Assembly (NCBI GenBank): GCA_964016885.1
Contig: OZ024743.1
Coordinates: forward strand, 257,362,001-257,426,000
Source of the DNA: Eledone cirrhosa
Taxonomy: Eukaryota
Reading direction: 5' to 3'
DNA length: 64,000 nt
The notes below the pieces were generated by a model. That model was not told where the DNA came from. It made no database searches and was given only the letters and a program-made list of their open reading frames with translations. Below, one piece after another: positions 704 through 35,170 of the stretch. Both the position numbers and the translations under genes were made by a program. The stretch's first letter is position 1, and the number at the start of each line of letters is the position of its first letter.

Positions 704-1284
704 GTGCGTAAGTGAGGAAAATACTCAAGGCATGGCTTTTATAGAGGAGTGGTGTTAGACCAGAACAATAATATCAATAATAAAATAACTAGATACTGAA
801 TATCGTATATATATATATATATATATATATATATGAAAAAGTTTGTCCTTCATCAGTGGTCTTCCAACCGTCCTAGGCATTTCATCGCTTTAAAGACCAT
901 ATACCTCAGGTTGGTGCGAGCAACGGCTAACAAAAGTCGTTGGGACACGTAAATAAAGGGGACGGTAGGGTAAACAAACAAAATGGTTTAAGCAACAGAA
1001 AGTGATGAAGAAAGAGACAAGTCCCAGATTTCTATGAATATAAATTCGGTGAAATTGTGAACGAGAGAATAAAGACCATCAAACCTGGTTGAAATGTGAG
1101 CAAGGAAGGAATTTCGCACAGGTCTAACGGGAGGAAGAATATATATCTATCTCTATATATATATATATATATATATATATACGATATTCAGTATCTAGTT
1201 ATTTTATATATATATATATATATATATATATATATATATATATATATATATAGAAGTGGTTACACAACAGTTAGTTCACCATAC

Positions 1285-1322
1285 GGAGAACAATTGTTTC
1301 ACTTTAGCCTATCCTCAGCTCC
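1285..1322 (-). ncRNA. Minimal hammerhead-like motif
   Basis: GGAG-CTGAGGA-TAGGCTAAAGT-GAAA-CAATTG-TT-CTCC; stem II pairs poorly. Confidence 0.6.
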
Positions 1323-1514
1323 TAATGGGCATAATTATACGGTACAGGAAGGACAACCGTATAAACGCGCATGCGCAGAAACGCGTCACTTCACACAGGC
1401 AATACTAAAATGCGTGCGAGAGGTGTAAGGGAGATAACTGCGAAAGTCCGAAAAGTTTTTAGTTGATAAGAAAAAATATTGATGTTGTTACAATAATTCA
1501 TTCAATCCGGAGGT

Positions 1515-1960
1515 TTGTAGTTATGCAATAGGTGTTTCGAGACGTGTGGACGACGTGTGAAAAATTCATTTCTCGTGTTTAGGCAATCACTATTGCATAA
1601 TCTCTTTAGAATATTTATTCGTTCGTCAATACACAGTCCACACGACGGATTTCCCCTTGCGTATGGCTTGGACTTAGTGATGGCTTTCCATTGAATGGAG
1701 TAGTCTATACTTGAGTCCTTGAGGGACCATACGTGACTCGCGAGTTTCGTGGATGAACGTCTGTCCGGGTACCTAAAGTTCGACTGATGGTTCAGGAAAC
1801 GTTCCTTAAATCAGCCCTCCGCCTAGCCCACGTGGGATTTGACCTCTTGTGGTTGGTTTGATCGGTTGGAAGTGACCACAGCTTCATAAATTACAGCTGG
1901 TGTGTTGCATTGCTGTTGAAGGGGGCAAGCTTCGGGCTTACGGCAAGAGCACCCTGGTGG
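1515..1960 (-). pseudogene. Degenerate PLE GIY-YIG endonuclease (CxCx5C linker, Naiad-like)
   Basis: Manual translation GCSCRKPEACPLQQQCNTPAVIYEAVV...SHVG*AEG*FKERFLNHQSNFR...TKLASHVWSLK...IQWK, with stops and frameshifts. Confidence 0.8.
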
Positions 1961-2014
1961 AGTGTTGCTCCTAGGGCTCCTGGTGATTCCTGTTCCGTAT
2001 GACCATGCCCATTA

Positions 2015-2052
2015 CGAGCTGAGTATCCGCTAAGATGAAACAATTGTTCTCG
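2015..2052 (+). ncRNA. Minimal hammerhead-like motif (variant core CTGAGTA)
   Basis: CGAG-CTGAGTA-TCCGCTAAGAT-GAAA-CAATTG-TT-CTCG; inverted partner of 1285-1322. Confidence 0.5.
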
Positions 2053-2274
2053 GTATAGTGAACTAACTGTTGTGTAACCACTTCTACCTAATTCGTCCCA
2101 TGGACTGAATGCTCTACCAGTACGGATATTACCTCCAGTGTTCTACCACTATATATATATATATATATATATATATATATATATATATATATATATGTGT
2201 GTGTGTGTGTATGTATATATATATATATATACGTATATATATATATATATATGTGTGTGTGTGTGTGTGTGTGT

Positions 2275-2460
2275 AAAAGGTAAACAGAAATAACAAAACA
2301 ATCGGTACAGTATATGGAAGGGATATATTAGGTTAACGCTTGATATAGCAGGAAGAGGGTCTTAACGTTTTGGAGTCTAGTCCTTCATAAGAAGAAAGAA
2401 TGAGATATAAGATAGATTGAGAGGACGGGCGGGATTGAAATGGAAAAAATGTCTTTAGGT
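2275..2460 (-). mobile_element. Short PLE-terminus-like unit with decayed HHR (2360-2394); second copy at ~29450-29600
   Basis: Minus strand CTT-CTTATGA-AGGACTAGACTCC-AAAA-CGTT-AAG, and ~140 nt of clear similarity to 29455-29597. Confidence 0.55.
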
Positions 2461-32281: not shown

Positions 32282-32509
32282 TTAACCCTTTTGATACCAA
32301 ATTGCTTGAAACTGTTTGTTGTAAAGTCTTTATATTAATCTAAAAACTTTCTACTGTAATTATATGTAAGAAGTTTTGCTCCAAATAATAACTTAATAAT
32401 GAAAAAATTGGTTAAGTTACTAAATGCTCTCATTTCTTGATTATTTTCAAAATTATTTGAAAATTGTAGACAGTGCATTTTATTAAAAATATGGTAACAA
32501 ATTGGTTAA
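32282..32509. mobile_element. TTAA-flanked MITE (piggyBac-like), degenerate
   Basis: TTAA-CCCTTTTGATACCA ... TGGTAACAAATTGG-TTAA; related to the 42.1-42.8 kb array. Confidence 0.55.
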
Positions 32510-32982
32510 TAAACATGCCTCCTAAATGCTTAAAAGTTTTAAAGTTGTTTTGAATTTTTTTTTTCAAATATTTTCTGACTGTGTATGCAGGCCTACTGTA
32601 TTGTTAACAACTTATGAACTTGCTAATAATTTAAGAACAAATTTATAAAAGTTCTTTAAATATAGTGAAACCATTTTAAGTGAAGTTACTGTGAGTGTAT
32701 TTTTTTAATAAATTTTCATTATGGTATAATTTCCTAAAATTCAATTTGTTTACTTAGCTAAATTTTGACACTTCTGCAAGTGTCTTGTAGATTTTCATTA
32801 TAATTCTTTTATTTTGTTTTTCCTGTTTCACGCCAATACTTAACACTTTTGGATTTAGTCATATAACATGTTTTAGTGTATGTGTGTGTGTGTGTGTGTG
32901 TAGGATACTCACACATACAGAGCAACACATAGTTAGTGTGTCTCTGTATGTATTGTAAATACATACACATATACATATATAT

Positions 32983-33521
32983 CATCATTATCATCATCAT
33001 TATTTAACGTCTATTTTCCATGCAAGCATGGGTTAGATGGGTTGTCCCAAGTTAGATGTCTTGCTCATACAGAACTGTTTCTGGCTTGGTTTGTATGGCT
33101 GAATGTCCTCCCTGACACCAGTCACATTTACAGTTTAGACAGGATGCTTTGTGTTATGATACCTACACGACCACTTTACAGTGTGGACTAGGTGCTTTTT
33201 ATCCTGGCAGCATAATAACCACTTTACAGTGTGGGCTGGGTGCTTTTTATCCTGGCAGCATAATAACCACTTTACAGTGTGGGCTGGGTGCTTTTTATCC
33301 TGGCATCATAATAACCACTTTACAGTGTGGGCTGGGTGCTTTTTATCCTGGCATCATAATAACCACTTTACAGTGTGAGCTGGGTGCTTTTTGTCCTGGC
33401 ATCATAATAACCACTTGACAGTGTGGGCTGGGTGCTTTTTATCCTGGCATCATAATAACCACTTTACAGTGTGGGCTGGGTGCTTTTGTTGTAATTCCAA
33501 CATAACCACTTTACAGTGTGG
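32983..33521 (-). mobile_element. RTE 3' UTR fragment with expanded 48-bp minisatellite (33170-33521, ~7 copies)
   Basis: Unit ACCACTTTACAGTGTGGGCTGGGTGCTTTTTATCCTGGCATCATAATA, preceded by the CATCAT..TTTAACGTC tail. Confidence 0.85.
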
Positions 33522-33544
33522 ATATATGTATGTGTATATATTTT

Positions 33545-33877
33545 GATTATGTCTTGGAAGCCACTAAAATGCAGGTGAGGTTGTAAATATTAAGGCAACG
33601 AAACTGGGTGAAGAAACAGAGAGGATAAGGTTGAGTGGAGAAGAAGAAGAAATAACAAGAATCTAAGATAATGTTACCATGGAAGTATTTATTATTCCCA
33701 ATATATTTTAGATTTACCATCTCAGTCGCAATATATTTCGGATGTAACATTATCTCTGATACTTGCTTTTTCTTTCTCTCTACCACTCAACCTAACCTCT
33801 CTTTTTTTTTGCATCCGATTTTATTGCCTTAATATTTACAACCCCACCTGAACTCTATCAGCTTACAATACATAACC
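33545..33877. repeat. Old fold-back element (~130-150-bp diverged inverted arms)
   Basis: CAGGTGAGGTTGTAAATATTAAGGCAA / TTGCCTTAATATTTACAACCCCACCTG; AGGTTGAGTGG / CCACTCAACCT; GATAATGTTAC / GTAACATTATC. Confidence 0.75.
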
Positions 33878-34927
33878 AATGTTTATAACAGACACTTATG
33901 TAGATAGGTAGAAAGACAGATATAGATGAATAAACAGACAGACAGATCGATAGATAGAGAGTTAGATAGATGTTGTTTTTATTGTCTGAAAATAGATGCA
34001 TAGATAGCTAGCTATGAATATCTGCTGCATGACTACTGACCATTTTGTCAACACTGTGTGAGTGAGAGAGGTAGTAAGATATAAAATTATCATTTCTCAA
34101 ACGTATCTATTTATCTACCTGTTTACCAATCTACTTATCTCTCAATCTACTTACCTACCTCCCTATCTATCTCGCTATATATCTACCTACCTCTCTAACT
34201 ATCTGTCTTTCATGCTGACTGTCAATCTAGGAAGACTCATCCAACGCTTGCTAGCAGGGAACGTGGGTATTAAAATGATGATGATATATCTATATTTGGA
34301 CAAGAACAAGAATAATAAAAAAGCAGATATCTGATTAGCAATCTGAAGAAAGCTAGTTAGATAGAATAAAGTCATCTCATAATTTAGTGCATATATGCTT
34401 GATAATGATTTAAAGAAAGTATGAAAGAAAATGATTGTAATTGATTTAAATGAATGCAAAATGAATTACAGCAATGGTTGGAGTGACAAGAAAGAGAAGG
34501 TCAAAGACAATCGAGGATTCCAGTATCTTTACATCCATTGTTCTAATCAAGGAATTATCAAATTAGATATTTGTTACAACCAATCCCATCATATGTATGT
34601 GTATGTAACCTAGTACACTATGTCAAGCATCGTTGCTGTTATGATAAAATGCACCTGATACATTCTGTAATGCTGGTCACATAATAAAATGCACTCAGAG
34701 TATGCTGTAAAATGATTGGCATTAAGAAGGGATTCAATTGTAGAAACAATGGCAAAATGGAATGTTTCAGCAAGAAACATTTGGTCATTTGAATATGAAA
34801 ACTGACACCAGAAAATAGACGTAAAATGGTACTGATGATTATATATATAGACACACACACACACATACATACATACATACATACATACATACATACATAC
34901 ATACATACATACATACATATATAAAGA

Positions 34928-35170
34928 AAAAAAGATGAAATCGAAAATGCAACTGGAGTCTTATTTTAAAAAAAATATAGTATATTTATTTGGTTCCTCT
35001 ACGGGTTTCGCAGTTCTTCTGCTTTTCAAAAGTAGAGTTGAGATGGAGGGTCTGTGGTTTTTCTCCTATGAAAAGCAGAAGAACTGCGAAACCGGTAAAG
35101 GAACCAAATAAATATATATATATTTTTTTTAAATAAGACTCCAGTTGCATTTTCGATTTCATCTTTTCTT
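34928..35170. mobile_element. Palindrome (~100-bp arms, ~40-bp spacer) with divergent hammerhead-like variants
   Basis: AAAAGATGAAATCGAAAATGCAACTGGAGTCTTATTT is inverted at the right end; each arm has TGAAAA-GCAG-AAGAA-CTGC-GAAA-CCSG-TA. Confidence 0.75.

Follow-up and report, generated by a model that had tools for sequence, protein, structure and literature searches.

Head-to-head, hammerhead-bearing insertions in a 64,000-nt stretch of the Eledone cirrhosa genome: probable truncated 3′ ends of Penelope-like element families

Introduction

According to the accessible parts of the closest reports, insertions of endonuclease-bearing (EN+) Penelope-like elements (PLEs) occur most frequently in head-to-head orientation, with an inverted pseudo-long terminal repeat (pLTR) and a tail, the pLTR plus tail running into the start of the open reading frame (ORF) (Arkhipova et al. 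2013, PMC3846280), and as inverted 5′-truncated copies in (TA)n targets (Craig et al. 2021, PMC8557442). Minimal PLE hammerhead ribozymes have a palindromic helix III and include a U3-A8 variant, and dual motifs are found on opposite strands, 100-700 bp apart (Cervera and de la Pena 2014, PMC4209133). In vitro, the enzyme of an Anolis PLE cuts and extends both strands, and two RNA start sites bound the tail (Frangieh et al. 2024, PMC11167929). Here we analyzed a 64,000-nt stretch of Eledone cirrhosa DNA (contig OZ024743.1, positions 257,362,001 to 257,426,000, forward strand; hereafter the window), which holds four short inverted units, A to D, and one large PLE of comparable layout.

We conclude, with a probability of roughly 80%, that A-D are head-to-head, hammerhead-bearing ends, most likely the 5′-truncated 3′ ends of four different PLE or PLE-mobilised families, that their polarity stems from 3′-end priming on both nicked strands of a TA-rich target, and that the predicted masking of each ribozyme by the opposite arm is a by-product. 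The inverted layout itself is already known, and A-D are further cases of it.

Results

Inverted units with a common outward polarity

The window is AT-rich and of animal type (GC 0.27-0.47); it contains 113 TA tracts of at least 8 nt, and microsatellites and retroelement fragments are abundant, the short repeats having a seemingly cephalopod-like character. Self-BLAST of the window recovers units A, B, C and D as well as the inverted ends of the PLE. The short units, together with one solitary hammerhead, are composed as follows:

1252 to 1365, minus strand: left arm of unit A, 3′ end adjoining (TA)n
1285 to 1322, minus strand: A-left minimal hammerhead, core CUGAGGA, stem I of 4 bp, stem II nearly absent, palindromic ACAAUUGU
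1366 to 1971: spacer of unit A, about 600 nt, with no match elsewhere in the window and no PLE-protein match
1972 to 2086, plus strand: right arm of unit A
2015 to 2052, plus strand: A-right hammerhead, core CUGAGUA (G8U change)
2087 to 2150, plus strand: one-sided extension of A, 64 nt, likely a PLE tail, ending at (TA)n
7290 to 7705: unit B palindrome, right end within (TA)n at 7704-7720
7410 to 7448, minus strand: B-left minimal hammerhead, CUGAAGA, stems of 5 and 3 bp, palindromic AGUACU
7547 to 7585, plus strand: B-right minimal hammerhead, anatomy as in B-left
27017 to 27731: unit C, two monomers of about 325 nt head to head, TA-rich centre
27155 to 27206, minus strand: C-left hammerhead, stems 8/4/4, GUC triplet
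27515 to 27566, plus strand: C-right hammerhead, mismatch in stem I
34920 to 35174: unit D inverted repeat, spacer of about 25 nt, left end adjoining (CATA)n
34995 to 35034, minus strand: D-left hammerhead, U3-A8 variant UUGAAAA, 3-bp stem I, stems I and III damaged
35063 to 35102, plus strand: D-right hammerhead remnant, AUGAAAA, core position 3 broken, palindromic ACCGGU
35175 to 35235, plus strand: one-sided extension of D, about 60 nt, likely a tail, ending at (TA)n
58623 to 58680, plus strand: solo minimal hammerhead, CUGAUGA, palindromic AUGAUCAU, its unit ending at (TA)n at 58731

The two arms are identical at 94 of 110 aligned columns in A (85.5%), 192 of 196 in B (98%), 283 of 298 in C (95%) and 102 of 111 in D (92%), and at 95% in the PLE. 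Compared with one another, A, B, C, D, the PLE 3′ end and the solo unit are unrelated (p≥0.10 against 100 shuffles for all 15 pairs). Every arm of A-D bears a hammerhead-type motif with its 3′ end facing outward, on the minus strand in the left arm and on the plus strand in the right. An earlier note on this DNA had described four sequence-unrelated units arranged in this way, and self-BLAST, the shuffle test and inspection of the motifs bear it out. Random polarity would yield five head-to-head pairs out of five with a probability of 1/32, by simple arithmetic, so the uniform arrangement fits a mechanism that fixes polarity. The same note called the units palindromes, which does not apply to A, a 110-nt repeat around a spacer. 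No inverted partner of the solo hammerhead (58627, plus strand) was found when one was looked for across the window.

Exact-motif scans gave no match for A in prokaryote genomes and none for C in metagenome contigs, and a look-up of RNA datasets listed none as containing unit C.

Quality of the hammerhead motifs

A hammerhead-type motif is present in all eight arms, but the core is broken in two of them (A-right and D-right). The other six have intact cores (CUGANGA or the U3-A8 form, with GAAA...UH), as do the PLE and solo motifs. The palindrome between positions 15.1 and 16.1 is perfect in five of the eight arms and in the solo motif, and imperfect in both arms of C, in D-left and in the PLE. 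C, D and the PLE have the G10.1-C11.1 pair. Set beside the metazoan PLE minimal hammerheads, as described in the accessible parts of PMC4209133, the motifs agree in being of type I, in their short helix I and palindromic helix III, in an extra nucleotide after A9 and in the U3-A8 variant. Like the published dual motifs, 100-700 bp apart, those here stand on opposite strands, with 39, 109, 325 and 701 nt between cores. The differences are that positions 10.1-11.1 hold U.U in place of G-C in A, B and the solo motif, that helix II is nearly absent in A (0-1 bp) and that helix III of C is 4 bp long.

In a descriptor scan, only C-left (score 32) clearly exceeds shuffled sequence; a shuffled window yields scores like those of B-left, B-right, D-left and the solo motif (18-20) and of A-left (16) about 2-5 times, and the remaining motifs were not among the listed hits. 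An Rfam search of the window returned no hammerhead among 128 matches at E≤1. The weaker motifs are nevertheless credible, given their palindromic helix III, covariation, position and closing stem I and the U3-A8 core of D-left, and not by score alone. When each motif is folded as a monomer at 20°C, the active fold of C-left lies 1.2 kcal/mol above the ensemble and those of the other seven arms 7-16 kcal/mol above it; thus, only one of the eight arm motifs is predicted to be near an active monomer fold. Further candidate motifs at 51086, 29777, 57398, 52255, 62510 and 17542 were not accepted as hammerheads, and Rfam microRNA matches, which score under the gathering cut-offs, were dismissed as hairpin and TA artefacts.

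The large PLE and related loci

The large element lies directly beyond unit B and reads on the minus strand:

7720 to 7763, minus strand: one-sided tail, 44 nt, through which the frame that begins with the ATG at 7789 runs on as far as the TA tract
7764 to 8235, minus strand: 3′ untranslated region (pLTR region)
7963 to 8005, minus strand: hammerhead, CUGACGA, extra U, 6-bp stem II, stems I and III decayed, outside the part covered by the inverted arm
8236 to 11661, minus strand: broken ORF with truncated N-terminus, Asn-rich stretch, reverse transcriptase (RT), CX4CxxC linker and C-terminal GIY-YIG-type endonuclease
11662 to 11868, plus strand: inverted copy of the 3′ end, lacking a hammerhead and ending in (TA)n

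The element has a single ORF combining RT with a C-terminal GIY-YIG domain, and both the RT motifs and the Y-I-C...Y-I-G-E end are conserved. Nine of 13 homologues were aligned to its protein (E down to 6.6e-116), and in this alignment (A1) residues C356, C361 and C364, as well as C383, C388, H426 and H431, are invariant, corresponding to a CX2-5CxxC linker and a CCHH-like motif. A Pfam search of pieces of the window gave no significant hit for the PLE, and homologue P0010 gives weak GIY-YIG and RVT_1 matches. By these domain traits, the element at 7720-11868 appears to be an EN+ PLE and a candidate member of the Neptune/Nematis type. The peptide encoded by the tail is weakly like homologue N-termini in two of eight comparisons (p 0.017 and 0.029, uncorrected); BLASTP of it against homologue P0009 returned no alignment.

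The right arm mirrors only 7764-7900 and ends where the cleavage site is still about 67 nt away. Consequently, it contains no hammerhead and leaves that of the PLE unmasked, and the earlier statement that the large PLE has the same polarity is right for its outward 3′ ends but not for a hammerhead on each side. The arm copies the 3′ end, which lies 3.7 kb away, and is fused to an ORF whose truncation falls about 30-50 codons from its start. No direct pLTR stands upstream of the ORF as in a partial tandem; the truncated body joins the inverted arm instead.

Two further features of the element deserve mention. Ahead of the RT, at 10610-11010 (minus strand), the frame runs through an Asn-rich segment of considerably more than 100 codons; at this position, the low-complexity loop of homologues is variable and shorter; rotifer Penelope ORFs carry long Asn-rich inserts at other positions, as stated in the accessible part of PMC3846280. 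In addition, a 76-nt piece (11742-11817) of a multi-copy short repeat, which is present at least 13 more times in the window, interrupts the inverted arm.

Among 36 loci encoding related PLE proteins, many too short to show their ends and including two pairs of the same family (L014/L017 and L035/L036), nine show a hammerhead on the sense strand that follows the protein match at a distance of 97-319 nt, and 11 of the 12 hammerhead hits overall are on the sense strand. Locus L005 carries, behind its PLE ORF, the UUGAAAA core seen in D; in L008, the hammerhead is repeated in an inverted copy located upstream, which runs into the end of the contig. In L032, a hammerhead on the minus strand (position 479) lies upstream of a fragmentary PLE ORF and is possibly another inverted arm; the downstream end of that locus is missing.

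Arm ends, tails and TA tracts

None of the ten arm ends (four units plus the PLE) is more than 71 nt away from a (TA)≥4 tract, a proximity shared by 17.7% of background positions, and five of the ten touch one, compared with 4.9% of background within 5 nt. For D-right, the nearest tract by script is internal, the outward one lying about 60 nt off. The unit ends are asymmetric, with tails on one side only: extensions leading to (TA)n are found at A-right (64 nt), at D-right (about 60 nt) and at the left end of the PLE (44 nt), and also in C. An inverted, 5′-truncated copy of the 3′ end combined with a one-sided tail is thus seen in the PLE, A, C and D, the tail of B being uncertain. The B right end and the PLE tail have the TA tract at 7704-7720 in common, that is, two unrelated insertions in one microsatellite. 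The proposal that ends lie at or near TA-rich tracts therefore holds for all ten ends in the looser sense and for half of them in the strict one, except that the TA flanking C is element sequence (see below).

To the extent that PMC3846280 and PMC8557442 describe them in their accessible parts, EN+ PLE insertions are alike in the head-to-head copy of the 3′ end, the one-sided tail, the pLTR running into the ORF start, the palindromes at the inverted junction, the (TA)n or AT-rich targets and the CX2-5CxxC linker before GIY-YIG. In contrast, four of the five insertions here are stubs with no ORF, their tails measure 25-64 nt rather than 30-40 nt, the window PLE has no direct upstream pLTR, and target-site duplications are unreadable.

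Unit C as a repeated monomer

The TA-rich stretches at the two outer ends and at the centre of C are one interrupted motif in inverted register, and hence the TA belongs to the element. Its right arm continues for about 25 nt into the start of the next monomer and then into clean (TA)n, so that C reads as a monomer of about 325 nt with a partial tandem tail. C resembles the animal non-LTR retrozymes (Li et al. 2026, bioRxiv 10.64898/2026.07.22.740005) in being a non-coding, hammerhead-bearing monomer of this length that runs on into a partial tandem copy and belongs to a highly repeated family. In the accessible part of that report, however, retrozymes are direct tandems with at least two hammerheads, whereas C has, at its locus, one monomer plus about 25 nt in each direction, head to head.

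In its relatives from runs X1 and X7, UUGAUAA stands in exact register with the CUGAGGA core of C (loose ends behind 27502). In the hammerhead region (27148-27260 and 27512-27540), the runs give much less coverage than at the monomer ends, and alternative sequences are joined across it; the family appears most variable at the ribozyme. Pile-ups of read ends in X7 at 27071, 27467/27470 and 27650 were dropped as element boundaries, as they coincide with AATT sites, and two opposite-strand joints in X1, each on a single contig, were too thin to count.

Discussion

Origin of the head-to-head layout

Two 3′-end primings are the best mechanism for these insertions. A PLE enzyme would nick both strands of AT-rich DNA and extend both, starting from two closely spaced RNA positions by which the tail is delimited, as judged from another PLE. 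Two short cDNAs, one per strand, would then be joined at their truncated 5′ ends; where both stop near the hammerhead a palindrome would result (B, C and D), and otherwise an inverted repeat around a spacer (A and the PLE). The model enzyme, PAc (Anolis Poseidon), acts on both strands of AT-rich DNA, which it nicks and then extends, with two reverse-transcription start sites defining the tail, and its hammerhead is dispensable for insertion (PMC11167929). It belongs to a different clade and species, and inverted products were not reconstituted in the accessible parts of that study.

The strongest evidence comes from the PLE and from unit A. The right arm of the PLE mirrors a stretch 3.7 kb from the junction, which a simple fold-back would not give. 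In A, stem I is CGAG/CUCG in the right arm and GGAG/CUCC in the left, i.e. a compensatory pair, and the stem II region also differs between the arms; these differences point to two templates. A PLE arm that copies the far 3′ end, and A arms that differ by a compensatory pair around an unrelated spacer, suggest that the 3′ end of the element served for a second priming. With the one-sided tails of A, C, D and the PLE, this supports the earlier proposal, largely in print, that both junctions behave as 3′ ends primed at TA. The origin from PLE ends is further favoured by the agreement of the motifs with the published minimal hammerheads, by the UUGAUAA of the relatives of C and by the sense-strand hammerheads and the inverted copy at the related loci.

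A different route from the same PLE origin would be fold-back self-priming, in which the second arm is copied from the first at a central palindrome or TA tract, as has been proposed in the accessible part of PMC3846280. Unit B invites this explanation, since its centre consists of a hairpin whose loop is a single nucleotide, together with a 21-nt duplication, and so does C, whose centre lies in self-complementary TA and whose arms have family-minority letters in common (e.g. 27293/27428 and 27205/27516). These shared letters would also fit two primings on one RNA, and fold-back cannot yield A or the PLE arm; as a general account it is possible but rather unlikely. The short units may instead be fold-back DNA transposons (miniature inverted-repeat transposable elements, MITEs) or chance palindromes, their hammerhead motifs being coincidental. 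In favour of this are the TA flanks and terminal inverted repeats, features reminiscent of MITEs, the weak descriptor scores of most motifs and the lack of Rfam hammerhead hits. It is hard to see, though, why four unrelated units should each then have a core, GAAA and UH, outward polarity and a closing stem I. The covariation in A and in the relatives of C, the one-sided tails and a true PLE of like layout nearby speak against it as well, and we regard this as very improbable.

Several observations weigh against two-priming PLE ends as the origin of A-D. No parent ORF for the four units was found, as PLE profiles match only 8239-11685 within the window, and at the DNA level A-D match neither the window PLE nor the 36 related loci; their family assignment thus depends on motif and layout. 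Most motifs fail to beat shuffles by score, and an inverted arm with a hammerhead occurs in only one of the 36 loci, many of which lie on short contigs. The B-left and D-left ends touch no pure TA tract, D-left adjoining (CATA)n. Target-site duplications are unreadable at the insertions, where TA tracts would hide any, and the abutting arms and self-complementary centres of B and C are explained equally well by fold-back. It should be noted that second priming and fold-back both set head-to-head polarity, so the ribozyme needs no role in it; what had been called a recurring design is better taken as an integration by-product.

Masking of the ribozyme and host tolerance

Masking follows from geometry: in read-through RNA from either strand, the antisense arm would be made first and could sequester the ribozyme in a long duplex fold, as had been argued before, and predicted folding agrees for the four short units. 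Within a complete unit, the hammerhead region forms 83-100% of its pairs with the opposite arm. For a transcript ending just past the ribozyme, the active fold costs 48-92 kcal/mol, compared with 1-16 kcal/mol for the motif alone, and the mirror arm in the read-through prefix accounts for an extra penalty of 37-90 kcal/mol; for comparison, the cost is 16 kcal/mol for the unmasked PLE and solo motifs when each is folded with the 600 nt that precede it, all of these figures referring to equilibrium secondary structure.

Whether such masking has been selected is another matter. Under that explanation, palindromic copies would be over-represented in introns, the antisense arm blocking cleavage of host pre-mRNA. 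The extent of pairing and its energetic cost speak for it, and masking could matter for C-left, the one motif predicted to be monomer-competent. Retrozymes are also reported as depleted in Xenopus introns, in passages that hold no strand analysis (bioRxiv 10.64898/2026.07.22.740005). On the other hand, two of the six hammerhead-bearing insertions, the PLE (8000, minus strand) and the solo unit, are unmasked and on opposite strands; seven of the eight arm motifs are predicted to fold poorly even alone; and six more inverted units of the window hold no convincing hammerhead. Published activity counts against it too, as far as the accessible parts of the reports go: a single minimal PLE hammerhead showed no cleavage in vitro (PMC4209133), that of PAc is inactive without its protein and left no cleavage-site reads (PMC11167929), and eight of nine retrozyme dimers did not cut. 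When 10 plus 145 stop-free frames were compared with Pfam, only retroelement-type hits (RVT_1, zf-RVT and a single PHD next to RT fragments) and three weak matches under the cut-off emerged, and hence no host exon among 155 frames; the 145 were drawn from 185 filtered frames outside the two large elements, of 555 frames of at least 45 aa, and short or non-Pfam exons would escape. An intron context thus could not be shown from these frames, and the suggestion that masking explains why intronic copies are tolerated is not supported. Selected masking is, in our judgement, improbable. Masking is not discussed in the accessible parts of PMC4209133, and our search of the open-licence literature found no paper stating the idea.

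Other features of the window

The six additional inverted repeats, at 1-420, 2461-2553, 13619-14078, 33527-33894, 35424-36454 and 63297-63682, include one centred on TA (2461-2553), and both this one and 63297-63682 end directly at TA on one side. Remnants of non-LTR retroelements, recognized by RVT_1 and zf-RVT hits or look-alike frames, lie at 45713-48271 (plus strand) and, on the minus strand, at 48882-50494, 56668-56949 and 24512-25102. A PHD-finger match (E 2.2e-05) at 28628-28837 (minus strand) is situated between RT fragments at 28997-29479 and a C-terminal frame at 28233-28612 resembling long interspersed nuclear elements (LINEs).

Implications

If masking shaped the survival of copies, head-to-head geometry would be linked to host tolerance, and a simple strand-aware test of PLE hammerhead cutting in cells would follow. 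One speculative and unlikely extension is that PLE integration gives each insertion antisense cover, as both its ends are 3′ ends and read-through RNA would pair up ahead of the hammerhead's completion, so that palindromic copies of monomer-competent families such as unit C would persist in genes where solo sense copies are purged, and would seed long double-stranded RNA in host transcripts. Taken together, the window offers a local illustration of known PLE insertion anatomy, with five inverted insertions of unrelated families within 35 kb. Of these, unit A and the large PLE provide evidence that the second arm arises from a second 3′-end priming, a point left open by the cited papers in their accessible parts.

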